Below are positions 1-13,914 of a stretch of 13,914 bases of DNA, piece after piece. The notes beneath the pieces are model-generated. The model was given only the letters and a program-made list of their open reading frames with translations, made no database searches and was not told where the DNA came from. Position numbers and translations under genes: made by a program. The stretch's first letter is position 1, and each line of letters starts with the position of its first letter. This DNA comes from a virus (Duplodnaviria > Heunggongvirae > Uroviricota > Caudoviricetes), in IMG/VR virus record IMGVR_UViG_2698536392_000012, positions 1-13,914 of that record. One strand, given 5' to 3'.

Positions 1-41
1 AACCACCAGCGCGTTTACTGTACTGGCGTGATTTCAGTCAT

Positions 42-64
42 AAAAAAACCCGCCTGGCGACGGG
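42..64 (-). terminator. tR'-like intrinsic terminator about 80 nt downstream of the Q stop
   Basis: On the minus strand, hairpin CCCGUC-GCCA-GGCGGG (49-64) followed by a 7-T run (42-48). Its position just past Q matches the short terminated late transcript that Q antiterminates in lambdoid phages. Confidence 0.45.
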
Positions 65-145
65 TGTAAAAAATCTTCTAACGTCAGGCATAAAACGCCC
101 ATCGTTAGGGCAAATTTACCACAGATTCGGGAAAAATCAACAAAG

Positions 146-967: not shown

Positions 968-1344
968 TTTTTGACCTGCCCTTCAAGCATTATGGGGTAA
1001 ATTTTCACCCCCAGACGTCCACCAGATACTGGCTGAGCACGAACGATATTGATTTCATCAAACTGCTCATCGTCCATTAGCAACCCCGCATGCGTCAGCG
1101 CATCCAGCGGCGCTTTCAGAATATTGTCCAGGTCACGGCGGCGCTTATCCGGTGGCTCGGCAATAATCTTTATCGCCAGCCTTCCGGACAGGCTTAATTT
1201 CAGCCGCTGCTGGCGAACAATAAGCGCCACAGCCCGGCGATAACGCTCACCGGCTTTTGATACAAAATATGTGTTGCCACGACGTCGCCAGTAAGTATTC
1301 ACCGTCGGCGGGTAAGGCAAAACAAATTCTATGCGTTCAGTCAT
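964..1344 (-). CDS. rusA: Holliday junction resolvase RusA
   Basis: 126 aa; from recall it resembles E. coli RusA (matching motif RRRDLDN, similar length). Typical nin-region position upstream of Q. Confidence 0.85.
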   Translation of the reverse strand: MTERIEFVLPYPPTVNTYWRRRGNTYFVSKAGERYRRAVALIVRQQRLKLSLSGRLAIKIIAEPPDKRRRDLDNILKAPLDALTHAGLLMDDEQFDEINIVRAQPVSGGRLGVKIYPIMLEGQVKK

Positions 1345-2403
1345 TCATGCTTTCCACTTCAGGACACCCGAATTTCTCGCGTGCATTAAAAAACGAATCA
1401 GCAACAACAGCTGGCTGCCGTGTTTTTCTTCAAAATCTTTTACCCCGGCGTGCAGTTCGTTATGACATTTACGGCACAGCGGAATAACAAACAAATCATC
1501 AGCCTTTGTTCCCATCCCTCCCAGTCCATGACCAATGATGTGATGCGGATCATCTGCCTGATTACCGCACGTCATGCATTTCTGCGTTTTTACCCAGCGC
1601 GTGTATACAGGCATCTCTTCCCGTTGTGGTTTCTGGCGCTGGAGATACTGAGCCGGAGATTCCGGATCAACGGCAATGCTGACCACCGCCTTTTCCTGTG
1701 ACGGGATTTGTTGCTGGTGGACGTGAGGCAACGGCGCAAGATTTTTTGTGCGCTGCTTCAGTATGCTGGTGGCGGTCTGCTCTCCCGGTACGATGTCGCT
1801 TTCGCGATACACCGAGTGGATTTTTTCCGCACGTAACCCCAGAGAACGACGCAATACTGCCTCCGGAAGCGCGTCCGCCACCTGATTGCAGACCGCCCAC
1901 CAGGATAATTCAGCCAGCGACAATTCCCGCTCCTGCGTGCCATTCATTGCATGGCGTATGACGTCAATCATCCATGCTGACAGGTTTTGATGAGCAAGTT
2001 GCTCGAGTGATTCGGAGGTCTGGTCGCGCAGCTGGTTGTCGCAGTGCCAGCACAACACCATTGCGCCGGTACCATAACGGTGAATGACGGTTTCACTGTG
2101 GTGATAATCGCCGTGTGGCCACTGGCAGGATTTAACATGGCGCAGTAACCAGTCAGACAATGCGCCAGCGCCACCAGCAGCACGAATCACTCGTTCGTCG
2201 CTGAAAAATGGCAGTAATGATTTATCCTCCGCCAGCGGCTGGCGAACGGCAGGAACGACCCCGGACGACAGATTACGCATGCTTTTCGGTTCCGGCTCCA
2301 CCAGTACCCGGGTATTGTGGAATACCGGCATGGATTCACGGCCCGGCTTAACGATCACCAGCCCGAGTTCCGGTACCAGAACAGGTCGAAGTAATACCCG
2401 CAC
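1345..2403 (-). CDS. DUF968/YdfU-like prophage protein with C-terminal Cys/His (HNH-like) motif
   Basis: 352-aa ORF. C-terminal CMTCGN...HHIIGHGLGG...CRKCHNELH zinc/HNH-like motif, as recalled for YdfU-type proteins. The ORF-track start is a GTG; the true start may be an internal ATG (residue 25 or 42). The stop abuts the rusA start. Confidence 0.55.
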   Translation of the reverse strand: MRVLLRPVLVPELGLVIVKPGRESMPVFHNTRVLVEPEPKSMRNLSSGVVPAVRQPLAEDKSLLPFFSDERVIRAAGGAGALSDWLLRHVKSCQWPHGDYHHSETVIHRYGTGAMVLCWHCDNQLRDQTSESLEQLAHQNLSAWMIDVIRHAMNGTQERELSLAELSWWAVCNQVADALPEAVLRRSLGLRAEKIHSVYRESDIVPGEQTATSILKQRTKNLAPLPHVHQQQIPSQEKAVVSIAVDPESPAQYLQRQKPQREEMPVYTRWVKTQKCMTCGNQADDPHHIIGHGLGGMGTKADDLFVIPLCRKCHNELHAGVKDFEEKHGSQLLLLIRFLMHARNSGVLKWKA

Positions 2404-2404
2404 G

Positions 2405-2683
2405 TTACCTCCAGATGCGTTGCTGGAATGTGCGGGACGGACGCGGTGGGCGTTCAGAGTAAGGAAGCCTGACGGAGATTATCCAGTGACGATAATCGAG
2501 GCTGAGGGCTTTCTTAATCCCGTATCCGTGTCTGCGGTAGCACTGAATTAGCCATTCAGCTTGTTCTTCAGTACATGGGGGATGCTGGTACCAATCAGAT
2601 TTGAATGTGCGGGAACGCCGCCCGTGCCTGCTGGCAAAGACAGCTGAATTATCAGAATTGTGTGATTTGGTATTGTGCGCCAT
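2405..2683 (-). CDS. Hypothetical nin-region protein (92 aa from internal ATG)
   Basis: The ORF-track start at 2764 lies inside the terminator hairpin, so the ATG at 2683 (MAHNTKSHNS...) is the more plausible start. Basic, Cys-containing, no recognised domain. Could correspond to the small rem-like gene found here in Qin-type prophages, but I cannot confirm this. Confidence 0.4.
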   Translation of the reverse strand: MAHNTKSHNSDNSAVFASRHGRRSRTFKSDWYQHPPCTEEQAEWLIQCYRRHGYGIKKALSLDYRHWIISVRLPYSERPPRPSRTFQQRIWR

Positions 2684-2760
2684 CGTCTTTCTCTGCTGGC
2701 GCAGCAGGTGCCAGTTGTTCAGGCTGACGTGCGAATTGTAAACCAGAATGCCAGGAAAAA

Positions 2761-2782
2761 ACAAAACCCGCCGAAGCGGGTT
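2761..2782. terminator. Bidirectional intrinsic terminator hairpin (copy A of a 22-bp direct repeat)
   Basis: AACCCGC-cgaa-GCGGGTT stem-loop flanked by an A-run upstream and a T-run downstream, so it can terminate on either strand. Identical 22 bp (ACAAAACCCGCCGAAGCGGGTT) recur at 4109-4130. Confidence 0.55.
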
Positions 2783-2798
2783 TTGTCAGTACTGAACA

Positions 2799-2948
2799 TC
2801 AAGCTGCGTGCTTGCCACTACAACTGCAAAGTGGGATCGGGAAAGGCTTCCCTTTTTTCGCGTGGCGCATTACACCATCTACACACACAGAGTAGCGAAA
2901 AATGATCTCACATGGACAGCCACATTTGCGACAGGTACCCATTGCCAT
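2799..2948 (-). CDS. Possible small Cys-rich protein (about 49 aa from internal ATG)
   Basis: ORF between the ImmA stop and terminator A containing CRKCGCPC and CSCSG motifs. Weak RBS and the ORF-track start is GTG, so this is low confidence. Confidence 0.2.
   Translation of the reverse strand: MAMGTCRKCGCPCEIIFRYSVCVDGVMRHAKKGKPFPIPLCSCSGKHAA
2838..2858 (+). terminator. Possible plus-strand intrinsic terminator
   Basis: GGGAA-aggc-TTCCC hairpin followed by TTTTTT on the plus strand. It lies inside the small minus-strand ORF and may block antisense read-through. Confidence 0.3.
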
Positions 2949-3115
2949 GATTTCGTTTTCCCTGCTCACCTGTGAATCCACACAGGTTGCACTTTGTTGG
3001 GAGAACCACTACACTTCGCTTGTCTACAAAAAGTGTTGTGATTGGATTATCTCCATACACTACGGAATGTGTTAGCGCACTTTCCGTCCCTAAAAGCCCT
3101 GTTAGCGCAGGGCTT

Positions 3116-3592
3116 TTACATATAAAAATCGAACGACATCTGTTGTGTTCTCACGCCAATTGTTTCCAGTACGATATCCGCAAATGTATCTGCCTGCCAT
3201 TCTGCATCCTCAATACGAGTAGGTTCTTTAACTGAAAAGTGTAAAACTGCTTTGTGTCCAAGAAGCAAATGACCTAGCTCGTGGAAGATAACAGCAAGTG
3301 CATGCTCTTCCCCAAGGCAAGCATTCACATATATTTTATTGGGAACCGTAATTGTTAGAGAAGCGGGGTCACAATGTCCGATAGTTAGATCATACGTCAG
3401 AGCCTCCCACTCTTTGTCGGTCCTGACGTCAAGAGTAACCCCATAAATTGACAGGCTTTCAAAGAACATATCATAACGCTTTCTTTTGCGCTTTGAGGCT
3501 GTAAGACCAATAGCATTACAGAAGTTTATAGCTCTGTAGGCTATTTCTTCTTCTTGCATCGGTGACACCCTGTTACCTCTCATTTGATACAT
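3116..3592 (-). CDS. ImmA/IrrE-family (COG2856) Zn metallopeptidase
   Basis: 158 aa with HELGHLLLGH (HEXXH) and a downstream EDAEWQADTFA motif, the usual third zinc-ligand region of ImmA/IrrE peptidases. Strong SD (GAGGGG) inside the 3' end of the upstream HTH gene; 2-nt intergenic gap. Confidence 0.7.
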   Translation of the reverse strand: MYQMRGNRVSPMQEEEIAYRAINFCNAIGLTASKRKRKRYDMFFESLSIYGVTLDVRTDKEWEALTYDLTIGHCDPASLTITVPNKIYVNACLGEEHALAVIFHELGHLLLGHKAVLHFSVKEPTRIEDAEWQADTFADIVLETIGVRTQQMSFDFYM

Positions 3593-3594
3593 AA

Positions 3595-3954
3595 TTACCC
3601 CTCATTGTTATTAATCTTTTGCAATAAATCTGCAAAACTCTTTAGCTGTTCCGGCGTAAACTGCGACTTAGCGAATCCCGCTACAAGCATTTTCTGTTGC
3701 TGAGACAAACCGTTTACTGGAACTGAGTCATTCGCAACTGCCGCTAACTCCTGTAACCCTTCAATTTCTACACCTTTGGCCTTGAAGTAAGAATCAATCT
3801 TCTTAACCCACTTCAGAGGTATTTTTTTGCTACCAGTTTCTAAACCGCTAAGAAACGCTGGCGTAGTGCCCAGTTCTTGAGACATAGTCAGAAGAGTACT
3901 GTCAGTATCGATCCTCGCTTTTCTAACGGCCTTACCGAATTCAGTGAGTGCCAT
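3595..3954 (-). CDS. XRE-family helix-turn-helix transcriptional regulator (ImmR-like partner of ImmA)
   Basis: 119 aa. N-terminal HTH (LLTMSQELGTTPAFLSGLETG). SD GAGGA 8 nt upstream of the ATG, with an AT-rich promoter-like region further upstream. Confidence 0.75.
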   Translation of the reverse strand: MALTEFGKAVRKARIDTDSTLLTMSQELGTTPAFLSGLETGSKKIPLKWVKKIDSYFKAKGVEIEGLQELAAVANDSVPVNGLSQQQKMLVAGFAKSQFTPEQLKSFADLLQKINNNEG

Positions 3955-4108
3955 GATTTTATCCTCAATTTGTTGATTTAGCAGACTTGCCTAACGCAAG
4001 CCTGATGGGCGCTTAAATTCTAATTCCTAAAATTTACCATATACGAAAGCAAAGTAAACCTTTTTAGTTAAAAAAATCTCCTTTAAGGGAATTTTTTTCA
4101 CAAAAAGA

Positions 4109-4130
4109 ACAAAACCCGCCGAAGCGGGTT
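4109..4130 (-). terminator. Intrinsic terminator hairpin (copy B of the 22-bp direct repeat), terminating the hok transcript
   Basis: Same AACCCGC-cgaa-GCGGGTT hairpin as at 2761-2782, followed on the minus strand by TTTGTTCTTTTTG. Located about 70 nt downstream of the hok stop. Confidence 0.5.
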
Positions 4131-4198
4131 AAGTGCGGGTGCGTTGAGGATGCCTGACACATCAGAGGTGGCGAGGGATTTCTCCCCCGCCAGGTCTC

Positions 4199-4354
4199 TT
4201 ACTCCTCAGGTTCGTAAGCTGTGAAGACAGCGACCTCCGTCTGGCCGGTTCGGATTCGTACCTCGCAGAGGTCTTTCCTCGTTACCAGTGCCGTCACTAT
4301 GACGGTTAAACAGATGACGATCAGGGCGATTAACATCGCCTTTTGCTGCTTCAT
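4199..4354 (-). CDS. hokD: Hok/Gef-family type I toxin (HokD/RelF-like)
   Basis: 51 aa MKQQKAMLIALIVICLTVIVTALVTRKDLCEVRIRTGQTEVAVFTAYEPEE, recognised from recall as HokD/RelF-like. SD AAGGAG 9 nt upstream. The ORF-track in-frame upstream extension (to 4411) is probably not used. Confidence 0.85.
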   Translation of the reverse strand: MKQQKAMLIALIVICLTVIVTALVTRKDLCEVRIRTGQTEVAVFTAYEPEE

Positions 4355-4598
4355 AGCCTGCTTCTCCTTGCCTTTCGGCACGTAAGAGGCTAGCCTACAT
4401 GTGCAAGTCATAGATATGGCCTCAGATTAATGTTAAGCGTCTTGCCGGACGCGTAATGTTAACTGGGGCTTTTCTCTGTCTGCCTTACGGCGGCATGCCC
4501 GAGGCAGACAGCCTCAAGCACCCGCAGCAATTCTACTTAACTCTCGCTTTACAGCAAACCGTTTTTGCCCGATATGGGAATTCCCATACGGAATGAAT

Positions 4599-4703
4599 TC
4601 AGTTCCCCAGGCGATCCATCAAAAACACAACCAGGCAGTAAACACCCACAACAGCAATAACAGCCAGAGCGCCTTCCATTACCAGTGAAATATCATCCGA
4701 CAT
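4599..4703 (-). CDS. Small hydrophobic peptide (34 aa), candidate small membrane protein or type I toxin-like ORF
   Basis: MSDDISLVMEGALAVIAVVGVYCLVVFLMDRLGN: acidic N-terminus plus one predicted TM helix. Very strong SD (AAGGGAGGG) 3-4 nt before the ATG, and promoter-like hexamers upstream. Not in the ORF track because it is under 60 aa. Confidence 0.35.
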   Translation of the reverse strand: MSDDISLVMEGALAVIAVVGVYCLVVFLMDRLGN

Positions 4704-4812
4704 ATTCCCTCCCTTGGTGTGAATTCCGGCGAACGTTTTTACCCCCACCGACAAATAACATATACTAGAAAAGCAATAGCTATAGCAACGCCTGCAAATG
4801 CATCGGGCCGGC

Positions 4813-5646
4813 TCATTGGTGCGCCCCCTGTATCGCTTCTACTGCGATCTGACTGGCGTATTTGTTAATGGTAACGATAAGTTCTTGCTCGGCCTCATCC
4901 AGACAACCACCGATACCTCGCCTGTCACCTTCAGAAGCATCGAAATCTGCACGAACCCTGGCGACCTTCAGGATTGCGGACAACACCTCATCAGGGATTG
5001 CCGGAGAGTTGGTTGACGTTTCCGAGGTTATCCGAAAATTATTGGTTGACGAATTCTTATTTTCCCGAAAGTTTTCGGCATGAAGCATGGCGGTGTTATA
5101 CCCATCCGCGAAAATCTCTGCTTCTTCGTTATTCAGTTCGGCACCAAGTTTAAGCGCAATAGCTTTTGCCATTGAGGCGGTAATTTGATGGCATGGCTGA
5201 CGTCCATGAAGCATGGCGTCGCTCCGCTCTATGCCATCCAGCGCAATTCGAAGCGCATGAATTGTAGTAATGCTATCGTTTGGGGTTATTCCGTATCGTT
5301 CGAATACAGCGATATGGTTGCGCATAATCGCAGGTGTAAGCTCTTTGTAAGCAAGAGCAAGAGGTCCAGATACATCGTTCAGCACTACCGTCATCGGTGA
5401 GGCGGCGTAGACTTCAATAATCCCAGTATCAATAGGCCATTCCCCATCCTTGATATAGTAACTTGTTCCGTCAACTTGCTGTTCTACAATGTGGAAAGCA
5501 CCTATTGGTTCTGCTTCCAGCGATGCCAGTGCAATTTTGAATAACTCGCCCTCTACCCGTGCCATCCCTGAATTGGGGTAGCATTTCGCAATCGCTATTT
5601 TTAATTTGGCTTCTTCGATTAATTTCTCTTTGGTTAATTCAGTCAC
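4813..5646 (-). CDS. Hypothetical protein (277 aa), unknown function
   Basis: Long ORF with a GTG start preceded by a CCGCCC-gaaa-GGGCGG hairpin. No recognised catalytic motif. Co-oriented downstream of the 70-aa and 119-aa genes. Confidence 0.55.
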   Translation of the reverse strand: MTELTKEKLIEEAKLKIAIAKCYPNSGMARVEGELFKIALASLEAEPIGAFHIVEQQVDGTSYYIKDGEWPIDTGIIEVYAASPMTVVLNDVSGPLALAYKELTPAIMRNHIAVFERYGITPNDSITTIHALRIALDGIERSDAMLHGRQPCHQITASMAKAIALKLGAELNNEEAEIFADGYNTAMLHAENFRENKNSSTNNFRITSETSTNSPAIPDEVLSAILKVARVRADFDASEGDRRGIGGCLDEAEQELIVTINKYASQIAVEAIQGAHQ

Positions 5647-5681
5647 TTTTCATTACCGCCCTTTCGGGCGGCCTCCTGACA

Positions 5682-5894
5682 TTAATCGTTGTGATAACTC
5701 ATAGCTTCATTTGCAGCATCAACTGGATCAACATCCCACCAGCAATAATTTGGGTCGACACCTTCAGGTGTCCACGGCTCTAATTCATTTTTTGCTACAT
5801 TCTCGTCACCAGTAATTTTAAAAATCTGCTCAGAGAATTTTTTTACCCACTCGTTATATTTTTCCGCGTTAATGGTTTTCTGTGTATTTAACAT
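5682..5894 (-). CDS. Hypothetical small acidic protein (70 aa)
   Basis: Strong SD (GGAGG) upstream of the ATG. Rich in D/E and W (WTPEGVDPNYCWWDVDPVDAANE). No recognised domain. Confidence 0.5.
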   Translation of the reverse strand: MLNTQKTINAEKYNEWVKKFSEQIFKITGDENVAKNELEPWTPEGVDPNYCWWDVDPVDAANEAMSYHND

Positions 5895-5939
5895 AGATAT
5901 ACCTCCGGTTAAGGATTAAATTTTATTTACAGTGCTGAT

Positions 5940-6299
5940 TTAATATTCAGTTCTGGCTTTTGTTGCCCTGCGTATCCGCGCTTTCGCGTTACGCTCAATC
6001 TGAATTAGCTTTTCTATATTTTTTCGCCTTTCCTGTTCCTCCTGGCGCAATAGCCTTACATCATCTGCCAGTCTGGTTTCTCTTTTAGCCACAGAGAGCA
6101 TCCAGTCAAACGGCTCCACAACTGCACCACAGATTTTGCAGCGGACCTGACGCTCTTTTTCGTCAACCCGGACAGAAGCGTGATGGCAGTATGGTCTTTC
6201 CGATGGCTCATAGAGAAAATTAACCTGATTACGTGGGTCATCCTCTTTTACCGGAAATAAAACGATATTGCTTAACTCATCTTCTGGTTTTATTTCCAT
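5940..6299 (-). CDS. Hypothetical zinc-ribbon protein with basic coiled-coil C-terminus (119 aa)
   Basis: SD AAGGAG 7 nt upstream. C-HH...CxxC spacing (CHHASVRVDEKERQVRCKICG) suggests a zinc ribbon. The C-terminus is Arg/Lys/Glu-rich and helical-looking. Confidence 0.55.
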   Translation of the reverse strand: MEIKPEDELSNIVLFPVKEDDPRNQVNFLYEPSERPYCHHASVRVDEKERQVRCKICGAVVEPFDWMLSVAKRETRLADDVRLLRQEEQERRKNIEKLIQIERNAKARIRRATKARTEY

Positions 6300-6356
6300 G
6301 GTCCTCTCCTTTGATGCGAATGCCAGCGATAATTGAAGCCTGATAGCTAATTTTAC

Positions 6357-6779
6357 TCACAGCCCCCCCCCCTGATAATTTCCCTGATAAAACGCCAGCA
6401 CTCGCTGCATAACTTCGCTCTTCCGGCACTCGCGACAGATTATATTCAGGCGCCTGTCGTAACGACGTATTTCTCCATCAGGTAATGACCAGATAAGGTC
6501 CGGATCAACCGCAGATGGTTTCTTCAGCTTTGCCCTTGAGAGCTTTTTACGGGCATTTTGCCAGTCCTTACGCGCCTGTTCAGACGGGAATAACCCGTAA
6601 CCAGAGTTGTATACATCGCCACTGGCAACCAGCTCTCTGGCCAGAACGCTCATCAGATATCTTGTTGCCCCAGTTTTAGCTTCCAGTTGTCGTAACGTCT
6701 CGCGCCCACTCTGGCGTACGAGTTCAAGAACCTGCCCTTTAATTTTTTCCCGCTCTTCTTGTGTAAAAACTTTTGCCAC
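6357..6779 (-). CDS. Hypothetical protein with putative winged-helix motif (140 aa), in the position of a replication accessory gene
   Basis: GTG start with strong SD (AGGAGG). Follows the O-like gene where lambda carries P. Too short for a DnaC/DnaB-type loader. The 3' end contains a G10 homopolymer on the coding strand. Confidence 0.55.
   Translation of the reverse strand: MAKVFTQEEREKIKGQVLELVRQSGRETLRQLEAKTGATRYLMSVLARELVASGDVYNSGYGLFPSEQARKDWQNARKKLSRAKLKKPSAVDPDLIWSLPDGEIRRYDRRLNIICRECRKSEVMQRVLAFYQGNYQGGGL
6363..6372. repeat. C10/G10 homopolymeric tract at the 3' end of the 140-aa CDS
   Basis: Ten consecutive C on the plus strand (G10 on the coding strand) encoding the GGG of the C-terminal ...QGGGL, ending 4 nt before the stop codon. 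Confidence 0.9.
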
Positions 6780-6819
6780 AAGCCCTCCTGAAAATTACCT
6801 CATGACCAGAAATACACAC

Positions 6820-7890
6820 TTACCCCCTGAAGCCCGGTGGAATTTCGGTATCCGGTTCAGAAATATGATTCACACAACGCTGGTTGTTCGTACCGCTTAC
6901 CGGGAGCAACCAGGGGTTTTCAAAATTCCGGTCCGGTCCAAAAAACGTCGTCGCTCGCTGAACAAATTCCGTTCCCGTTTTCCCGGTAGCCGCCAGGTAT
7001 CTTGCGTAACGCCTCACACCATCCAGCATGGCCTCTGGTGGCACCCCCTCGCGTAATCTGGCCTTCCAGGCACTGAAAGCGGATTTCTTCGGGTTTGCCC
7101 CAGCACGCAACGGGTATTCCCGCCAGACCTGTTCGAACACATCCGGATAATCTACTCGCCCCACAGGCTGCCCGGTGTTTTCCGGGACTACCCGATCGGC
7201 TTCCCGCTGAATGGCGGAATCGGCTTCAGGCTGCTGCAGTTGGTGTGATTGCTCCGGCCTTGCGGTCATCACCTGCTGCACAGCGCCCGAATCGGCTTTC
7301 AGCGCATACGCTGAATCGGCTTCCGGTGTCGTGCCTGCTGGCTGACCAGGATTGACGGTCTGAACATCCCCTGCCTGGTTCGTGGCGTTTTTTACGCCAT
7401 GGACCATAGTGTTTTGATCTTCTTGATCTGTATCTTTATCTGTATCTTTATCTGTCGTGACTCGTCGTGACATGTGCGTGACATTTCGTGACGCGCCGTG
7501 ACAATCGCCATTTTGTTCCCGCTTTCTTTCCCTCTCTCGCTGCGCCCTCTTGCGCTCTGCAGGAGATTTTGCGGTTTGCGAAATATTGCCGTTGTCCTCT
7601 TTCAGCACCTGGCGTTTTTCCCATCCAGTGATTAAATCACCATCAAGTACCCGCCCCTGCATCGTCTGCAAAATTGAATCAATTACCTCTTCTGTCACGT
7701 CGAGCGCACTTGCCAAATCTTCTGTCGTGACATCAATGTGACCTCGCGTGACATTTCGTGACGCGCTCACCAGGAGGTGGATATACACTGCCATCACTGT
7801 TGCAATTGGCTGCCCTGACACCCTGGCAATTGTTCGCCACTTAGGGTCATTTGGCATGTCATGCCATAATCTGAGCCAGGCGTTAGCCAT
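6820..7890 (-). CDS. Phage replication initiator / replisome organiser (lambda O-like), containing the putative origin
   Basis: About 356 aa from the ATG at 7890 (the ORF track starts two codons earlier at a GTG). The coding sequence contains clustered CGTGAC repeats (iterons), as in the lambda O gene. The C-terminal region (YPLRAGANPKKSAFSAWKARL...) resembles prophage replication proteins from recall. Confidence 0.65.
   Translation of the reverse strand: MANAWLRLWHDMPNDPKWRTIARVSGQPIATVMAVYIHLLVSASRNVTRGHIDVTTEDLASALDVTEEVIDSILQTMQGRVLDGDLITGWEKRQVLKEDNGNISQTAKSPAERKRAQRERERKREQNGDCHGASRNVTHMSRRVTTDKDTDKDTDQEDQNTMVHGVKNATNQAGDVQTVNPGQPAGTTPEADSAYALKADSGAVQQVMTARPEQSHQLQQPEADSAIQREADRVVPENTGQPVGRVDYPDVFEQVWREYPLRAGANPKKSAFSAWKARLREGVPPEAMLDGVRRYARYLAATGKTGTEFVQRATTFFGPDRNFENPWLLPVSGTNNQRCVNHISEPDTEIPPGFRG
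7427..7502. repeat. Putative origin iteron cluster 1 inside the O-like gene
   Basis: 12-bp tandem repeat TCTGTATCTTTA x2.4 (7427-7455) followed by five CGTGAC copies starting at 7456, 7466, 7477, 7487 and 7497 (10-11 bp spacing, one helical turn). Confidence 0.6.
7721..7766. repeat. Putative origin iteron cluster 2 inside the O-like gene
   Basis: CGTGAC/TGTGAC copies at 7726, 7738, 7747 and 7757. The 21-bp segment GCGTGACATTTCGTGACGCGC (7746-7766) is an exact copy of 7476-7496. An inverted GTCACG copy sits at 7694-7699. Confidence 0.6.
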
Positions 7891-7961
7891 ACTCACCTCT
7901 TCTGATACCGAATCTTTTTACTCACGAGTTGCCGGAAGCGATTCGATATGGCTATTGTCAG

Positions 7962-8387
7962 TCAATGTACTGCCACAGCATTTCCTGCCGGGCCACCACG
8001 ATTCATCTGATTGAAACCGGCGATTGCCACTGCGACAAAATCATCAGCGTCTCTCACCAGTCGCTCCCGCGTCTCCACCAGCTCCCGAAAATAAGCTGAA
8101 CTGTGGCTGCGCATTCTGGCCACCAGCAAAGGTGGCATTGCCTTTTCGATCGCTGGTAACAACGCCTGAATTTTTTCAACTGCATCAGGGGTGTCTTTCT
8201 CTACCCAGCGGAAAATTTTCTGGGTATTACGAGCCAGGGCTTCCGGATGGCTGTCGTCGTACAGTTCCGGGAACGTCATCCCCAGTTCGAAATAAGTCCG
8301 GGCTATTTCAGCTGCAGGAACTTTCTCACCATCAGGGTATGCCCAGGCATTCATCGCCATGCGGATGTGCTCATGCTTGATTTTCAT
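7962..8387 (-). CDS. YdaT-like protein (CII-position regulator of Rac/Qin-type prophages)
   Basis: 141 aa starting MKIKHEHI..., which I recall as characteristic of YdaT-family proteins. Its start overlaps the cro-like stop (ATGA), suggesting translational coupling. Confidence 0.55.
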   Translation of the reverse strand: MKIKHEHIRMAMNAWAYPDGEKVPAAEIARTYFELGMTFPELYDDSHPEALARNTQKIFRWVEKDTPDAVEKIQALLPAIEKAMPPLLVARMRSHSSAYFRELVETRERLVRDADDFVAVAIAGFNQMNRGGPAGNAVAVH

Positions 8388-8647
8388 GAATCAACTCCCA
8401 GCGCGGGTTGTGTGTTAGCCTGATAGTCAACAGGTATGCCATCGGTTGGGTTGGGGTAAGTACTGCTATCAATCTCGTGCGGGGTCACTACCCACCCTGT
8501 TGCTTCACACCAGCGTAAAACTTTCCCCCCCGTAAGTTTCGCCCGTCCAGTAATAACATGGCTTACCATCCCTTGGGTTACCCCAACAATTTCAGCAAAA
8601 TCTTTCTGGGTTATACGGGAATGATGCAAATATTCTCCAAGATTCAT
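8384..8647 (-). CDS. Cro/YdaS-like HTH DNA-binding protein (first gene of the early-right operon)
   Basis: 87 aa with HTH (ITQKDFAEIVGVTQGMVSHVI). SD GAGGT 5 nt upstream. Divergent from the repressor gene across an operator-containing intergenic region. Confidence 0.7.
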   Translation of the reverse strand: MNLGEYLHHSRITQKDFAEIVGVTQGMVSHVITGRAKLTGGKVLRWCEATGWVVTPHEIDSSTYPNPTDGIPVDYQANTQPALGVDS

Positions 8648-8679
8648 TGTTCACCTCATGTTATGTGACCATGAGCATT

Positions 8680-8739
8680 AATAGCATTGTTATTTTTAAA
8701 AGTAAATAGCATCGCTATTTCAAAGAGATTAATAATCTT
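8680..8739. promoter_or_regulatory. Divergent promoter/operator region (OR-like) between the cro-like and repressor genes
   Basis: Perfect palindrome AAATAGC-atc-GCTATTT (8704-8720), imperfect copy TAATAGC-att-GTTATT (8680-8694) centred 25 bp away, and a 13-bp palindrome AGATTAaTAATCT (8727-8739). Confidence 0.6.
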
Positions 8740-8754
8740 ATTAGAATTGAAGGT

Positions 8755-9255
8755 ATGAAAAGAAAACCCCTGTCAGAGATCGACCTGCAAGCCGCCCAGA
8801 GACTGAAAGAAATCTGGACGACGAAAAAAACTCAACTTGGGTTAACCCAAGAGCGTGCGGCAGAAATTCTGGGTTTTTCGACACAAGGGGCAGTAAGCCA
8901 TTATCTAAATGGTCAGACACCTTTAAATCTAGAGGCTGTTATCAAGTTCGCTGGGTTGCTACAAGTTCCGCCTGAGTCAATTAGACCAGATATGGCAGAC
9001 TTGTTACGAATTGTAAGGATGTACCCCCAAGAACTGCAGCAGGATAATGTTGTCGCTTTACCCGCAGAGATGGAGCAATCGGAAAACGAACTTCCGTTTA
9101 ATATAGAACCTATAGAGCGAGATTTGATCCAGACGTTCAGGGCTTTCCCAAAAGAAGACAAAGAGAAAATGCTTAAGGAAATGAAGGAGAAAAAAGAATC
9201 AATTGAAGAAACCGTTGCGCGGTGGCTAGAGGCGCAAAAAGGTCGTCGCGCCTAA
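8755..9255 (+). CDS. DicA/CI-like HTH repressor, probably a PaaR-type regulator of the downstream toxin-antitoxin pair
   Basis: 166 aa with N-terminal XRE HTH (LGLTQERAAEILGFSTQGAVSHYLNG) and no S24 peptidase domain. C-terminal helical region similar in style to DicA. Followed 17 nt later by the paaA-parE-like genes on the same strand. Confidence 0.7.
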   Translation: MKRKPLSEIDLQAAQRLKEIWTTKKTQLGLTQERAAEILGFSTQGAVSHYLNGQTPLNLEAVIKFAGLLQVPPESIRPDMADLLRIVRMYPQELQQDNVVALPAEMEQSENELPFNIEPIERDLIQTFRAFPKEDKEKMLKEMKEKKESIEETVARWLEAQKGRRA

Positions 9256-9272
9256 TCTGAGGAGGTTAGAAC

Positions 9273-9464
9273 ATGAGTACAGTCCTTTCCCCGATAATTT
9301 CAGAATTTGAAACAATCGAACAAGAAAACAGCTATAACGAATGGTTACGCACCAAAGTGGCAGCAAGCCTCGCAGACCCCCGTCCTGCAATTCCGCATGA
9401 CGAAGTAATGGCTGAAATGGAAAACCTTATTGCGCAAATAGCTTCGACGAACAGGAGTGAGTAA
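9273..9464 (+). CDS. PaaA-like antitoxin (ParE-associated antitoxin)
   Basis: 63 aa. The core SEFETIEQENSYNEWLR...SLADPRPAIPHDEV resembles PaaA2 of E. coli O157 prophages from recall. Strong SD (GGAGG). Its stop overlaps the toxin start (TAATG). Confidence 0.7.
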   Translation: MSTVLSPIISEFETIEQENSYNEWLRTKVAASLADPRPAIPHDEVMAEMENLIAQIASTNRSE

Positions 9465-9754
9465 TGCTGCCCATTTTATGGCTACCTTCTGCGCGTGATG
9501 ATTTGCGTCAGATCGTAGCCTATATTGCCAAGGAAAACCCTCCCGCTGCACGTAGACTAAAAATACGCATTGAAACATCAGTTTTGTCACTTTCTGAACA
9601 TCCTTACCTGTATCCACCAAGCGAAAGAGCTCTAGGCCTTCGTGAGATAGTGACCCATCCTAACTACATAATACTTTACCGAGTAACAGCATCTAACATC
9701 GAGATCGTAAATGTAGTTCACTCACGAAGGCAGTATCCAAACAAAAGCTGTTAA
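9464..9754 (+). CDS. parE: ParE/RelE-superfamily toxin
   Basis: 96 aa with the typical ParE pattern (W.P.A..DL..I..YIA..NP.AA, REIV, NIEIVNVVHSRR). Translationally coupled to the upstream antitoxin. Confidence 0.8.
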   Translation: MLPILWLPSARDDLRQIVAYIAKENPPAARRLKIRIETSVLSLSEHPYLYPPSERALGLREIVTHPNYIILYRVTASNIEIVNVVHSRRQYPNKSC

Positions 9755-9768
9755 TCATTCCTACCAAC

Positions 9769-9792
9769 AACCACCTTCGGGTGGTTTTTTTT
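9769..9792 (+). terminator. Rho-independent terminator of the repressor-TA operon
   Basis: AACCACC-ttcg-GGTGGTT hairpin followed by a T8 run, 15 nt after the parE stop. Confidence 0.8.
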
Positions 9793-9810
9793 CTTACCTC
9801 CAAAAAAAAC

Positions 9811-9849
9811 AATAGCATTACTATTTACACGATAAAATAGCAGTGCTAT
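9811..9849. promoter_or_regulatory. OL-like operator pair / leftward early promoter region
   Basis: Perfect palindrome AATAGC-agt-GCTATT (9835-9849) and imperfect AATAGC-att-ACTATT (9811-9826), 24 bp centre to centre. Same half-sites as the sites at 8680-8720. Confidence 0.55.
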
Positions 9850-10028
9850 TGTTTATTCATCACCCACCCACCCCACAGAATGCAGGGCAATACCTCGAGT
9901 TACCCGGCAGTGGCCAGGGGTTAAGTAGCCAGCCCGAGGCGTATGAACATGACGGCGGGAACACTTTGTATAACAGCGCAGCAGGTTTTTAGTTCCGCGA
10001 CCCGGCGTTAAGGGTAAATGAGGTCAAC

Positions 10029-10181
10029 ATGGATATGCTCAATCTTGGCAACAACGAATCTCTGGTATGCGGAGTATTCCCCAACCTGGACGGCACGTTC
10101 ACCGCGATGACGTATACCAGAAGCAAAACGTTTAAAACGGAAGCTGGCGCGCGTCGCTGGTTAGCAAGAAACTCTGACTGA
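10029..10181 (+). CDS. Small hypothetical protein (50 aa), first ORF of the pL-side operon (YdfA-like position)
   Basis: SD GAGGT 5 nt upstream of the ATG. MDMLNLGNNESLVCGVFPNLDGTFTAMTYTRSKTFKTEAGARRWLARNSD. Identity not confirmed. Confidence 0.4.
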   Translation: MDMLNLGNNESLVCGVFPNLDGTFTAMTYTRSKTFKTEAGARRWLARNSD

Positions 10182-10279
10182 TGAAGGTTAGTAATTAAAG
10201 AGTTCTCCACAGGCGAAGTGGAATACGTTCGCCGGACACGGGTAAGCATCCGGCATGCTCTTTAACAATCTGGGTATTC

Positions 10280-10726
10280 CTAACCACAAAGGAATCGCAT
10301 CAATTTGGATTTTGCAGACAGTTTCTCTTGTTGTTCTACGGAGATTCCTATTTTGATCTGGGTTTTTAAGATTGCGATATCTTTAAGCGACGACCAAATA
10401 TTATCATCTGTTTTTTCCAGGAGCTTTAACTGCATTTTCAATTCCGAATCGGAATATTTTTCTGCATCATCATAAAGCTGCAGATATTCTGCGGATTTTC
10501 TCATTGCGTTACCTGACTTTTGTCCGAATCCGTAAATCGTTTGAACGGTTGCTATCACAACAATGAGAACTCCAGAAACTTCAGGAATAAATCCACCAAT
10601 GACAGATGAACCGAGGATAATACTCACCACTGAGAGAAGTTTATCGAGACGACCAGTCGCTACAGAGAATAGTTGTTCAAGAAAATAACCATATAAAACC
10701 CTGTCAAGAATATCATCCCGGTCCAT
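10280..10726 (-). CDS. Two-TM membrane protein (148 aa), candidate superinfection-exclusion/abortive-infection protein (SieB-like position; SLATT-like architecture)
   Basis: Two adjacent hydrophobic helices (LLSVVSIILGSSVIGGFIPEV, SGVLIVVIATVQTIYGF) followed by a charged, coiled-coil-like C-terminus. AT-rich and convergent to the pL-side genes, like sieB in Rac. Confidence 0.55.
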   Translation of the reverse strand: MDRDDILDRVLYGYFLEQLFSVATGRLDKLLSVVSIILGSSVIGGFIPEVSGVLIVVIATVQTIYGFGQKSGNAMRKSAEYLQLYDDAEKYSDSELKMQLKLLEKTDDNIWSSLKDIAILKTQIKIGISVEQQEKLSAKSKLMRFLCG

Positions 10727-10785
10727 ATATCATCACCTGCTTGTTTGATTGTTGCTGTTCCCCCTCTCCTCTGAAGGAGCTGGAG

Positions 10786-10983
10786 ATGGTTTTGGTCGAA
10801 TGTTTTTCTCAGGTATATGTTTCCTGGTATTCGGAATGTCCGACCTGTCCGCAGGCTTACCAGTACCTGAACAATTCTTTTGAACCACCATATAAAACAC
10901 CTTCCTGTTGTTGGGGATATCCAGATTATACAGATTATACAGATTTCCTGTCGTTGGGGAACGACGGAAACCACCTCGCCTGA
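10786..10983 (+). CDS. Possible small Cys-rich protein (65 aa)
   Basis: Good SD (AAGGAG, 6-nt spacer). CxxC and CC motifs and a YTDYTD repeat encoded by a 9-bp tandem DNA repeat (10912-10936). Could correspond to the small ydfB/ydfC-type genes upstream of dicF, unconfirmed. Confidence 0.3.
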   Translation: MVLVECFSQVYVSWYSECPTCPQAYQYLNNSFEPPYKTPSCCWGYPDYTDYTDFLSLGNDGNHLA

Positions 10984-11210
10984 CGTGGTTAAAAGCAGGC
11001 ACACAACGCGAAAGCGTACGGCGAAGCTCTTTCCCTTAGAAGGCTTGTCGTTAGATTTCTTCGAACGTGCGCTTCCGGTTGTGGCAATCCGCGAAATGGC
11101 GCGGCGGTAAGTATGGCGGGGTTATTCCTTCCCCAGTTGAGGACACCGGGTTGTCAGGTTGACCATACGCTTAAGTGACAACCCCGCTACAACGCCCTCT
11201 GTTATCAATA

Positions 11211-11268
11211 TTCTGGTGACATTTGGCGGTATCAGTTTTACTCCGTGACTGCTCTGCCGCCCTTTTTT
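11211..11268 (+). ncRNA. dicF: DicF small regulatory RNA (ftsZ-targeting sRNA of Qin-type prophages)
   Basis: TTCTGGTGACATTTGGCGGTATCAGTTTTACTCCGTGACTGCTCTGCCGCCCTTTTTT matches the recalled E. coli DicF sequence nearly base for base, including the GGCGG/CCGCC terminator stem and T-run. Sits immediately upstream of dicB. Confidence 0.8.
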
Positions 11269-11438
11269 AAAAGTGAATTTTGTGATGCGGTGAATGCGGC
11301 TCAGCGCACGCGGAACAGTTAAAACCAAAAACAGTGTTATGGGTGGATTCTCTGTATCCGGCGTTAATTGTTAACTGGTTAACGTCACCTGGAGGCACCA
11401 GGCACCGCATCACAAAATTCATTGTTGAGGACGCGATA

Positions 11439-11627
11439 ATGGAAAAGTTATCATGTAATGCCAGCACGTCTGAACTTCGTTTCGAAATTGGCGTTATCAC
11501 TGGAGACAAAACATTTATTGAAGACGCCATTAAGCAGAGAAAACTCGAGCAGGACCTGTTAAATGAAGTATGCATTCCTTCAATGCTGGCTCGTCTGGAC
11601 CTGCTGCAAAAAGGATATAAACAATGA
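11439..11627 (+). CDS. dicB: DicB cell-division inhibitor (MinC-dependent)
   Basis: 62 aa; the motifs FEIGV, EDAIKQRK and CIPSMLARL align with recalled K-12 DicB at the same length. Downstream of dicF as in Qin. Confidence 0.8.
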   Translation: MEKLSCNASTSELRFEIGVITGDKTFIEDAIKQRKLEQDLLNEVCIPSMLARLDLLQKGYKQ

Positions 11628-11815
11628 ATACAACATTTGCACTCGTTCTGACAGTTTATCTTGTTTCCGGCGAATCTCTTGAGCTGGTGACTGGCTTATA
11701 CGGTTCAATGAAAGAATGCATGGCTGCAGCAGCAGAACAAAAAATTCCCGGTAACTGTTATCCGGTAGATAAAACTACTCACACTAATAATAACGAAATA
11801 CCGGCAGGACTTTAA
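11624..11815 (+). CDS. ydfD: YdfD-like small membrane/lysis protein
   Basis: 63 aa with N-terminal TM helix (FALVLTVYLVSGE) and a C-terminus ending ...KIPGNCYPVDK...EIPAGL, resembling YdfD from recall. Start overlaps the dicB stop (ATGA). Confidence 0.7.
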   Translation: MNTTFALVLTVYLVSGESLELVTGLYGSMKECMAAAAEQKIPGNCYPVDKTTHTNNNEIPAGL

Positions 11816-11908
11816 AACAGCACCGTAATTAATATCCGGTTTCATTTTTATATGCCAGCAATGGCAGGGATTTGTTCACCCTTAAATCTGTAATGAGGTT
11901 AAAACAAA

Positions 11909-13914
11909 ATGAGTAAAGTCTTTATTTGCGCCGCCATTCCGGACGAACAGGCAATAAAAGAAGAGGGCGCAGTTGCTGTAGCCACTGCCATTGAAGCCGG
12001 TGATGAACGCCGCGCCCGTGCCAAATTTACCTGGCAATTCCTGGAGCAATATCCTGCTGCTCAGGACTGCGCTTATAAATTTCTTGTCTGCGAAGATAAA
12101 CCCGGCATGCCCCGCCCTGCTATCGACTCCTGGGATACCGAATATATGCAGGAAAACCGCTGGGATGAGGAATCCGCTTCCTTTATTCCGGTCGAACCAG
12201 AATCCGATCCGATGAACGTCAATTTTGACAAGCTGTCCCTTGAAGTACAGAACGCGGTCCTGGTTAAGTTCGGTACATGTGAAAACATCACCGTTGATAT
12301 GGCGATTGACGCGCAGGAATTACTGCAGGAAGACGTTGCTACCTTTGACGGGCATATCGTTGAAGCACTGATGAAAACGCCTGAAATTAACGCTATGTAT
12401 CCGGAACGCAAACTGTTCGCTATCGGATGGGTTAAACACAAATGTAATCCGGGTGCCAAATGGCCCGAAATTCAGGCTGAATTACGTAACTGGAAAAAAC
12501 GGCAGGACGCAGAGCGCAAAGAGACTGGAAAATACACGTCTGTTGTTGATCTCGCCAGCGCCAGAGTCAATCAACAGAACACTGAAAACTCAGCAGGAAA
12601 AATCAACCCAGTCACTGCCGCCATTTGTCGCGAATACAAGCAGACATGGAAAACGCTGGATGAAGAACTGGCCTACGCTCTCTGGCCTGGCGATATTGAT
12701 ACCGGAAACATTGACGGCAGCATCCATCGCTGGGCAAAAAATGAAGTTATCGACAAAGATCGCGAAGACTGGAAGCGCATTTCCGCATCAATGCGCAAAC
12801 AACCCGATGCCGTTCGCTACGACCGTCAGACTATTTTTGGCCTTGTCCGTGAGCATCCGATCGACATTCACAAAGATCCCGTAGCACTGAACAAATACAT
12901 CACTGAATACCTGACTACCAAGGGCGTGTTTGAAGATGACGAAGGAACAAATCAGGGCACAGCTGGTACTCTCCCGTCACCAGTACCAAAAACTGATGCA
13001 GTGGAAACGGCAATGCCGGACAACGAAAAAACCGAATGCGAAGTGGAAGACGAACCATCTGTAGAGCGTGAGGGACCGTTCTACTTCCTTTTCACCGATA
13101 AGGACGGCGAAAAATACGGTCGCGCAAACAAACTTTCTGGTCTGGAAAAAGCACTGGCCCTGGGAGCTACGGAAATCACAAAAGAGGAATACTTCGCACG
13201 TAAAAACGGCACGTACTCAGGTTCACAACAAAATACTGGTGCATCTGACACGATCGCACAACCAGAGCCGGTAAAAGTTACCGCTGACGAAGTAAACAAA
13301 ATTATGCAGGCAGCCAATATCAGCCAGCCTGACGCCAATAAGTTGCTTGCTGTATCACGTGGTGAATTTGTTGCAGGGATTAGCGACCCGAATGATCCGA
13401 AATGGGTGAAGGGGATTGAAACCCGCGATTCAGTGAATCAGAACCAGCAAGAAACGGAACAGAACGGCCAGAAAGCGGAACAAAACAGCCCAAATGCGTT
13501 ACAAAACGAGCCAGAAACGAAACAACCTGAACCAGTAGCGCAACAGGAACCGGAAAAAGTCTGCACCGCCTGCGGTCAGACCGGCGGCGGCAACTGCCCT
13601 GATTGTGGCGCGGTGATGGGCGACGCAACATACCAGGAAACATTCGATGACAAGAACCAGGTTGAAGTTCAGGAAGACGATTCGGAGAAAATGGAAGGCG
13701 CTGAACATCCACACAAGGAGAATGCTGGCGGCAATCAGCATCACGATAGCGATAATGAAACTGGCGAGACGGCAGATCACTCAATTAAGGTGAACGGTCA
13801 TCAAGAAATCACATCCACCAGCAGGACGTGTGACCATCTAATGATCGACCTTGAAACCATGGGAAAAAATCCTGATGCCCCGATCATCTCAATAGGTGCA
13901 ATATTTTTCGATCC
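11909..13914 (+). CDS. recE: RecE-like exonuclease (exodeoxyribonuclease VIII family), 3'-truncated by the window end
   Basis: Open frame from the ATG at 11909 to the window end (missed by the ORF track because no stop lies in the window). The segment LLAVSRGEFVAGISDPNDPKWVKGIETRD...CTACGQTGGGNCPDCGAVMGDATYQETFD aligns with the recalled central region of E. coli RecE. The last residues (MIDLETMGKNPDAPIISIGAIFFD) look like a DnaQ/DEDD Exo I motif. Confidence 0.75.
   Translation, partial: MSKVFICAAIPDEQAIKEEGAVAVATAIEAGDERRARAKFTWQFLEQYPAAQDCAYKFLVCEDKPGMPRPAIDSWDTEYMQENRWDEESASFIPVEPESDPMNVNFDKLSLEVQNAVLVKFGTCENITVDMAIDAQELLQEDVATFDGHIVEALMKTPEINAMYPERKLFAIGWVKHKCNPGAKWPEIQAELRNWKKRQDAERKETGKYTSVVDLASARVNQQNTENSAGKINPVTAAICREYKQTWKTLDEELAYALWPGDIDTGNIDGSIHRWAKNEVIDKDREDWKRISASMRKQPDAVRYDRQTIFGLVREHPIDIHKDPVALNKYITEYLTTKGVFEDDEGTNQGTAGTLPSPVPKTDAVETAMPDNEKTECEVEDEPSVEREGPFYFLFTDKDGEKYGRANKLSGLEKALALGATEITKEEYFARKNGTYSGSQQNTGASDTIAQPEPVKVTADEVNKIMQAANISQPDANKLLAVSRGEFVAGISDPNDPKWVKGIETRDSVNQNQQETEQNGQKAEQNSPNALQNEPETKQPEPVAQQEPEKVCTACGQTGGGNCPDCGAVMGDATYQETFDDKNQVEVQEDDSEKMEGAEHPHKENAGGNQHHDSDNETGETADHSIKVNGHQEITSTSRTCDHLMIDLETMGKNPDAPIISIGAIFFD

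Follow-up and report, generated by a model that had tools for sequence, protein, structure and literature searches.

Does the helix-turn-helix (HTH) regulator of a PaaA-ParE toxin-antitoxin (TA) operon also act as the immunity repressor of the prophage that carries it? The question is raised by a locus in the Caudoviricetes record IMGVR_UViG_2698536392_000012, positions 1 to 13,914 of which were analysed here as one stretch (hereafter the window); a gene for a 166-aa HTH protein stands upstream of a PaaA-like antitoxin gene and a ParE toxin gene, and pairs of AATAGC-N3-GCTATT palindromes lie on either side of the three. The region is the immunity switch of an Escherichia coli lambdoid prophage, built like the OL-rexBA-cI-OR-cro-cII region of lambda, and the locus is very probably a heteroimmune allele of the known PaaR-PaaA-ParE immunity design of the prophages CP-933P and CP-933M. 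The idea behind the question is the model published in 2021 for the sister locus in E. coli O157:H7 (CP-933P); the window provides one more allele and adds breadth, of modest value, to an established principle, and is not a new concept.

The genes of the operon, its terminator and the divergent gene pair that faces it are:

8755-9255, plus strand: immunity repressor, 166 aa, with a lambda-CI-type N-terminal domain, a disordered linker and a two-helix PaaR-type C-terminal domain.
9273-9464, plus strand: paaA antitoxin gene, 63 aa (Pfam PF21217, E = 2.9e-22; PDB entry 3zbe, PaaA2, E = 1.7e-22).
9464-9754, plus strand: parE toxin gene, 96 aa (Pfam PF05016, E = 3.8e-18; PDB entry 5cw7, ParE2, E = 2.2e-35, spanning ParE residues 1-93).
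9769-9792, plus strand: intrinsic terminator, AACCACC-TTCG-GGTGGTT and a T-run (-10.4 kcal/mol, z = -3.66 against shuffles).
8384-8647, minus strand: ydaS, Cro-like HTH protein, 87 aa (Pfam HTH_3, E = 4.9e-6; PHROG 35, repressor, E = 3.7e-16).
7962-8387, minus strand: ydaT, CII-like activator, 141 aa (Pfam YdaT_toxin, E = 7.4e-10; PHROG 163, labelled 'CII-like transcriptional activator', E = 1.2e-44).

The repressor-paaA-parE operon sits in the lambdoid immunity region, divergent from ydaS-ydaT and with operator sets on both sides. The genes and their Pfam and PDB matches agree with the initial annotation, which had read a three-component PaaR-PaaA-ParE-type module in the prophage immunity region, with the 166-aa HTH gene opposite a cro-like gene, found here as the 87-aa ydaS, the first gene of the rightward operon; the three genes occupy the place that cI-rexAB has in lambda. 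The layout that it described is also present: a 17-nt gap (9256-9272), which contains GAGGAGG, separates the repressor gene from paaA, paaA and parE overlap by TAATG (9462-9466), and a strong terminator follows, the hairpin of which recurs in two related loci (L003 and L004, introduced below). No promoter or terminator was detected between the repressor gene and paaA-parE, the single terminator lying after parE, and we infer from the sequence that the three genes are co-transcribed. PaaA and ParE are 86% and 87% identical to their CP-933M-type counterparts, and 64% and 65% identical to PaaA2 and ParE2, respectively. Unlike the antitoxin of a canonical type II ParD-ParE system, which has its own DNA-binding domain and is autoregulating, PaaA of the window has no DNA-binding family match in Pfam, its only match being to the PaaA2 toxin-binding motif family (residues 16-48 of 63).

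Residues 2-82 of the repressor match the N-terminal domain of the lambda repressor (phmmer, E = 1.6e-9). An AlphaFold (AF2) model, built from an alignment of 16 family members, comprises five helices within residues 8-89, a low-confidence linker (residues 90-112) and two further helices (residues 119-130 and 133-165); the ten best PDB matches found by Foldseek are all lambda cI N-terminal domains (38% identity, E = 2e-5), with template modelling (TM) scores of 0.81-0.94 on the target, these targets being isolated-domain chains. Lambda CI contacts region 4 of sigma-70 through two acidic residues of helix 2, Glu34 and Asp38; E33 and E37 of the 166-aa protein align with these residues, and both positions are acidic in 16/16 aligned family members. 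Pfam gives no Peptidase_S24 (PF00717) match in the 166-aa protein, and canonical RecA-stimulated self-cleavage is therefore not expected; S24-bearing relatives do exist (P0033, and the CI of the Stx2a phage Lyz12581Vzw), but these are different proteins.

The kinship with PaaR proteins lies at the other end of the molecule. In BLASTP comparisons only residues 123-166 align with PaaR2 (44 aa, 50% identity, E = 1e-14) and only the last 64 residues with the CP-933M-type PaaR (58% identity, E = 2e-22); PaaR2 and the CP-933M-type PaaR likewise have in common only their C-terminal segment. Alignment with the O157 locus thus bears out a PaaR-type regulator for the last 44-64 residues, but not for the N-terminal domain, which is lambda-CI-type and not PaaR2-like; N-terminal homology to PaaR2 was rejected, as BLASTP aligns nothing before residue 123. 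PaaR-type regulators have one C-terminal module, with the approximate consensus LLQxFxAFPxEDxExMLxEMKxKKESMExxVARWLAAQKGRRA, joined to unrelated DNA-binding domains, and by sequence they appear to be CI repressors in which the S24 domain has been replaced. Since PaaR2 is an octamer (PMC8630535), the PaaR-type C-terminal domain probably stands in for the S24 domain and drives oligomerisation. The 166-aa protein provides a direct sequence link between PaaR-type regulators and the CI proteins of lambda and Stx phages; the link between PaaR2 and CI had been made in published work by function and by an HHpred-predicted HTH motif, despite low sequence similarity. A search of the PDB for a full-length PaaR returned only PaaR2 residues 1-71 (7nkv, 8c3k, 8c3l), and a Pfam match of residues 106-159 to Tad5 (E = 0.0095, 16.5 bits) was rejected, being below the cut-off of 27.

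The palindromes are arranged as rightward (OR) and leftward (OL) operators around the operon, and overlap the predicted rightward (PR), leftward (PL) and repressor-maintenance (PRM) promoters:

8680-8694: OR site AATAGCATTGTTATT, one mismatch (GTTATT), overlapping the PR -10 element.
8705-8719: OR site AATAGCATCGCTATT, perfect, overlapping the PR -35 element and abutting the PRM -35 element.
8728-8742: candidate third, OR3-like site ATTAATAATCTTATT, five mismatches, between the PRM -35 and -10 elements.
9811-9825: OL site AATAGCATTACTATT, one mismatch (ACTATT), overlapping the PL -35 element.
9836-9850: OL site AATAGCAGTGCTATT, perfect, overlapping the PL -10 element.

When the 13.9-kb window was scanned with the pattern AATAGCNNNGCTATT, allowing up to two mismatches, exactly 4 matches were found versus 0.57 expected (1 of 200 shuffles reached 4), and all four of these AATAGC-N3-GCTATT sites fall within two intergenic stretches, one on each side of the operon. 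The sites of each pair are 25 bp apart, centre to centre, and the two 40-nt units are 75% identical. The initial annotation had likened two flanking pairs of such palindromes, with 24-25 bp spacing, to OR and OL. The flanking-pair anatomy fits that likeness and the four sites do flank the operon, but only two of them are perfect, the spacing is 25 bp throughout and the right-hand pair ends at 9850, not at 9849. No third OL site was seen 25 bp to either side of the OL pair.

Comparison with related loci indicates that operators follow the N-terminal domain of the repressor, and not the cargo, across at least four immunity types. The comparison set consisted of paaA-parE loci from complete E. 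coli genomes, which were fetched and translated, and a second set comprised protein-search relatives with the same CI-type N-terminal domain (L006, L008 and L010), the contigs of which were inspected; this domain is present in six loci, namely the window, L003, L004, L006, L008 and L010. The 166-aa proteins of L003 and L004 are 90% and 79% identical to that of the window, and both loci have PaaA-ParE cargo and AATAGC-type pairs on both sides. In L006 (3001-5360) the repressor, of 244 aa, has two HTH domains as well as the PaaR C-terminal module, and its cargo is a HipA_2 kinase together with a DUF3037 protein; in L008 (3001-4339) the repressor is followed by HigB-HigA, and in L010 no cargo separates the repressor from the next operator pair. 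The repressor gene is divergent from a ydaS/ydaT-like pair in L006 and L010; in L008 it diverges from an 87-aa gene without annotation, and no member of the YdaT family was called there. An AATAGC-type pair lies upstream of the repressor in 6/6 loci (sites 24-25 bp apart) and a second pair after the repressor or its cargo, again in 6/6 (25-26 bp apart), with almost no other matches in these loci at up to two mismatches; the OR site at 8680-8694 is conserved in each of the five relatives.

Loci with other N-terminal domains but homologous PaaA-ParE have no AATAGC-type motif in their immunity region. L005 encodes PaaR2 itself (MQKKE..., 123 aa) with PaaA2 and ParE2, and has GTTTAGT repeats at OR and after parE; such repeats are also found in L014, as published for PaaR2. 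In L002 (O157:H7 SS52) and L011 a 133-aa regulator is accompanied by AAAAACTGT/ACAGTTTTT repeats at OR and OL, whilst L012, with a fourth N-terminal domain, has its own ACTTTxAAAGT-like repeats at OR and OL. YdaS is 82% identical in L004, where the operators are those of the window, and falls to 32-35% identity in loci whose operators differ. These loci amount to a natural experiment: as the N-terminal domain changes the operators change with it, while the C-terminal module and homologous PaaA-ParE stay common. Together with the experiments on CP-933P (PMC8630535), this co-variation suggests that one protein serves as both immunity repressor and TA regulator, as had been proposed in the initial annotation.

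A separate arrangement was seen in L013 (669-1532; E. coli 2013C-4974), where two PaaR-type regulators, a PaaR2-like one of 123 aa and a CP-933M-type-like one of 153 aa that overlaps paaA, stand in tandem upstream of one paaA-parE; this locus may be a recombination intermediate between immunity types.

The promoters with which the operators overlap, and a further element at the ydaS/ydaT junction, are:

8719-8747, plus strand: PRM-like promoter TTCAAA-17-TAGAAT, from the promoter scan.
8678-8706, minus strand: PR-like promoter TTTACT (8706-8701), 17 nt, TG-C-TATTAA (8683-8678), identified by eye.
9824-9852, plus strand: PL-like promoter TTTACA-17-TG-C-TATTGT, from the promoter scan, with an extended -10 flagged.
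8377-8394: YdaT operator TTGATTTTCATGAATCAA, OM-like, perfect, spanning the ydaS stop and the ydaT start.

PR and PL are alike in that one operator overlaps the -35 element and the outer half-site (GCTATT) of the other supplies a TGnTATT extended -10. PR is followed by GAGGTG and the ydaS ATG, and equivalents occur at the same place in L006, L008 and L010 (TT(T/G)AC(T/A), 16-17 nt, TATTAA or TAATAT). PL points away from the operon, towards ydfA (DUF1391), DicF and dicB; a PL-like arrangement is present in 6/6 loci, with TTTAC or TTGAC at -35 and TATTGT at -10 (TATTAT in L010). The perfect OR site reaches as far as the first base of the PRM -35 element, and its centre lies at about -43 from the paaR ATG/transcription start site, the position that OR2 has relative to PRM in lambda. 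The end of the PRM -10 element is 7 nt before the paaR ATG, and a leaderless mRNA is thereby implied; paaR has no usable Shine-Dalgarno sequence (the GAAGG found 1 nt from its ATG is not shared by L004), and each of the seven comparison loci checked (L002, L003, L004, L005, L006, L008 and L010) likewise has a -10 hexamer 6-7 nt before its ATG.

The YdaT operator at 8377-8394 is the only 0-mismatch occurrence of TTGATT-N6-AATCAA in the window; with mismatches the motif is not enriched (5 found versus 10 expected), so that only the perfect site is meaningful. The same motif at the end of ydaS was footprinted for the YdaT of CP-933P (Prolic-Kalinsek et al., PMC9986795). A perfect operator at the footprinted position implies a conserved route into the repressor operon like that of the repressor-establishment promoter (PRE), and the site is likely to form part of a PRE-like element.

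Further features lie downstream of the two divergent promoters:

6820-7896: replication initiator gene, beyond ydaT (PHROG).
11211-11262, plus strand: DicF small RNA (Rfam RF00039, 77 bits).
about 11439-11627, plus strand: dicB, downstream of the predicted PL.

With DicF and dicB both placed behind the predicted PL, expression of these cell-division inhibitors is probably shut off by the repressor, a part played in Qin by DicA. Just past OL, at about 9860-9920, a conserved stretch, ACCCACCCCGCCCCACAGAA(C/T)GC(A/C)GGGCAATAC(T/C)TCGAGTTACC, is found in all immunity types, with equivalents in L002-L005 and L011-L013 and no match in Rfam; it marks the mosaic boundary on the right-hand side of the immunity cassette and forms the leader at the 5' end of the PL transcript. 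Between ydfA and DicF, opposite the PL operon, lies a 148-aa open reading frame with hydrophobic stretches (10280-10726, minus strand), which matches PHROG 6315 (unknown function), is also present in L013 and has no Pfam or PADLOC match; it may be a moron.

For the sister locus much of this anatomy has been tied to function. In the cryptic prophage CP-933P of O157:H7, PaaR2 holds the cI position and is a CI analogue (Jurenas et al. 2021, PMC8630535). Its mRNA is leaderless, like that of cI, as found by rapid amplification of 5' cDNA ends (5'RACE) and N-terminal sequencing; the protein footprints a 97-bp paaR2-ydaS region that covers PRM and PR, represses PR as well as PL, the operators of which lie on the far side of the operon, and stimulates PRM at a low level (PMC8630535). 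YdaS acts there like Cro and YdaT like CII, through PRE, and the locus is bistable; it also stabilises a mini-F plasmid, that is, it confers addiction (PMC8630535). PaaR2 has no motif for autocleavage and is unresponsive to mitomycin C (PMC8630535).

In the mechanism that we propose for the window, the 166-aa protein would be the CI equivalent, its N-terminal domain reading 15-17-bp AATAGC-N3-GCTATT operators. Two dimers at OR would occlude the PR -35 and -10 elements and keep ydaS, ydaT and the replication genes off, two dimers at OL would occlude PL and keep ydfA, DicF and dicB off, and a single octamer could fit all four dimer sites and so close an OR-OL loop of 1.1 kb. The repressor would probably activate its own leaderless PRM transcript, since an OR site abuts the PRM -35 element at about -43 and E33 and E37 are kept. 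This transcript would carry paaA-parE as cargo of the rexAB slot and end at the terminator before OL; labile PaaA would neutralise ParE, such that cells losing or replacing the immunity region would be poisoned (addiction), and YdaT could re-drive the operon from the PRE-like element at 8377-8394. We infer binding, PRM activation, looping, the role of the C-terminal domain and toxicity for this allele; DNA binding, leaderless translation, bistability and addiction are demonstrated in its paralogue in CP-933P.

The window matches part of a lambdoid prophage at 100% identity; this prophage adjoins yccA in E. coli strain 2013C-4830, and its order is int-exo-dicB-...-[repressor-paaA-parE]|ydaS-ydaT-O and, after O, ...-hokD-HTH/ImmA-DUF968-rusA-Q-lysis-terminase-portal. 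Window-type regions occur in 72 of 5,426 complete E. coli genomes, many of the carriers being Shiga toxin-producing E. coli (STEC), and some paaA-parE locus is present in 841 genomes of the same set. Among the deposited phage genomes searched there was no full-length match to the 166-aa protein, and nothing therefore ties the allele to an active phage; phage Evi is the sole deposited phage record with a PaaA2-ParE2-like cassette. A literature search found no publication on this allele.

Several points weigh against the reading of the locus as a CI-type immunity switch. The prophage, which has a short integrase and pseudogenes, may be defective, and a lytic cycle may no longer be under the control of the switch. 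PR was identified by eye and was not called by the scanner, which missed it because its -10 element is without the final T. The third OR site at 8728-8742 is tentative: it is weak in the window, with five mismatches, and a three-mismatch site stands at the same +23 bp offset in L004, L006, L008 and L010, for example ATTAGCAATCTTATT or ATTAGTAAAACTATT. When the 24 sites of the six loci were pooled in both orientations (48 half-sites) the core AATA was invariant and the central triplet varied, but the conservation of this core is partly circular because the sites were picked by pattern match; their placement at OR and OL is not circular.

The role of the cargo is a separate matter. The slot behind this repressor family takes varied genes (PaaA-ParE, HigBA, a HipA-like pair or, behind an S24-type CI, a restriction-modification system), and by sequence the rexAB-equivalent position looks like a hot spot, or swap-in site, for TA and defence genes. 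Both the place of PaaA-ParE in the rexAB slot and the presence there, in relatives, of HigBA, a HipA-like kinase pair or restriction-modification would suit a cassette that serves mainly as anti-phage cargo, in Rex-like exclusion or abortive infection, and not in addiction. We regard this as unlikely: PaaA, ParE and the repressor match no PADLOC model, and the sole activity demonstrated for the paralogue is addiction that stabilises a plasmid; nor are defence and addiction mutually exclusive roles.

The initial annotation had further suggested that prophage induction is tied to toxin release. On this account inactivation of the repressor would cause PRM activity to fall and PaaA to decay, and the freed ParE would act as an anti-induction or suicide device. 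The 17-nt gap has no detected promoter of its own for paaA-parE, so that upstream transcription is needed, PaaA2 is degraded by ClpAP/ClpXP (PMC8630535), and full PRM activity would seem to require the repressor, given the OR site at -43. However, the CP-933P data contradict the link: there the TA genes are transcribed in either switch state, ParE2 is activated in neither and the SOS-positive cell fraction is alike in both (0.88% versus 0.95%; PMC8630535), and the published role is addiction, by which the immunity region is stabilised; in the window too, the perfect YdaT operator and PRE-like element would be expected to sustain operon transcription in the 'lytic' state. A toxin-releasing switch is thus distinctly improbable, and the addiction module carried on a CI-type repressor transcript is preferred.

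It is scarcely credible that the 166-aa protein regulates only the TA operon, as part of a split antitoxin, with the prophage repressor elsewhere (for example, the 119-aa HTH gene described below), for although PaaR2 entered the literature as a TA system's third component (PMC8630535) and the window holds a second HTH gene with an M78 peptidase partner, the sites also cover PL, which points away from the TA operon, the same N-terminal domain and operators occur with other cargo or with none (L010), PaaR2 has been shown to repress PR and PL, and no other repressor is annotated between int and Q. A separate bona fide repressor gene, on which the identity of immunity repressor and TA regulator would have foundered, was not found in 41.7 kb of the identical prophage. 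The second HTH gene, the only other one between int and Q, lies in the nin region, beside hokD/sok:

3595-3954, minus strand: HTH gene, 119 aa, paired with an ImmA/IrrE (M78) peptidase gene (3116-3592).

This pair is present in 56 complete E. coli genomes, and in FDAARGOS_536 it is identical over 839/839 nt and stands 7 kb from a PaaR2-type region, which has GTTTAGT repeats and no AATAGC sites. The pair (3116-3954) was rejected as the switch repressor because one identical protein cannot set two different immunities. It gives marginal CapH/CapP-like matches in PADLOC (E ~0.01) and could in principle be a damage-responsive regulator pair. Next to it, a sok antisense RNA (4349-4523, minus strand; Rfam RF01794, 111 bits) accompanies a hokD-type toxin open reading frame (4199-4411, minus strand), and hokD/sok, a type I system, constitutes a second TA system in the same prophage.

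With the 166-aa protein as the CI equivalent, the window can be set beside four known systems. The paaR2-paaA2-parE2 locus of CP-933P/Sp12 (Hallez 2010; PMC8630535) has the same gene order and orientation and homologous PaaA and ParE; it resembles the window also in a -10 element 6-7 nt before the ATG, in operator clusters at OR and at PL past the operon, and in a YdaT operator, TTGATT-N6-AATCAA, at the ydaS/ydaT junction. It differs in its repressor, PaaR2 having an N-terminal domain that is unrelated in sequence and a length of 123 aa versus 166 aa here, and in its operators, its OR having four repeats of the GTTTAGTAA type and its OL three operators, whereas the window has two strong AATAGC-N3-GCTATT sites per side. 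The CP-933M-type locus (L002 and L011; presumably paaR1-paaA1-parE1) has the TA cassette closest to that of the window and the same flanks (ydaS/ydaT, ydfA and dicB), but its 133-aa regulator has a different HTH domain and its operators are different.

The S24-type CI of the Stx2a phage Lyz12581Vzw has an N-terminal domain 54% identical to that of the window repressor, with TQGAVS at the start of the recognition helix in both, and the OR of this phage holds the site AATAGTCTAGCTATT (AATAGT-N3-GCTATT). In the corresponding locus (L015, 2495-5267) cI is followed by genes for a methyltransferase and a BsuBI-type restriction enzyme, and there is no PaaA-ParE; the C-terminal domain of this CI is a LexA-family autopeptidase, and the repressor is probably SOS-inducible. 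Strain JNEC-KY176 (NZ_AP045172.1) carries both a Lyz12581Vzw-type CI (95.8% identity at the nucleotide level) and a window-type PaaR locus (97.6%), at about 1.674 Mb and 3.372 Mb, such that two related DNA-binding domains are present in one cell. Since both repressors have the same type of DNA-reading domain and of operator, AATAG(C/T)-N3-GCTATT, a resident prophage of the window type could conceivably act in trans, as an SOS-blind repressor and immunity factor, against Lyz12581Vzw-type Stx2a phages; if so, Shiga-toxin phage induction would be damped by the resident repressor. We consider such a role in trans very doubtful; the two recognition helices differ beyond TQGAVS.

Lambda itself provides the template against which the whole region is read. 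The window shares with it a homologous repressor N-terminal domain, including the N-terminal arm and the acidic sigma-contact residues, a repressor mRNA that is predicted to be leaderless, an operon that carries cargo and ends at a terminator before OL, and an operator that abuts the PRM -35 element. Lambda has three sites per operator where the window has two strong ones, RexAB where the window has a toxin-antitoxin cargo, and an S24 domain in CI that the 166-aa protein is without, whilst Cro and CII are replaced in the window by YdaS and YdaT.

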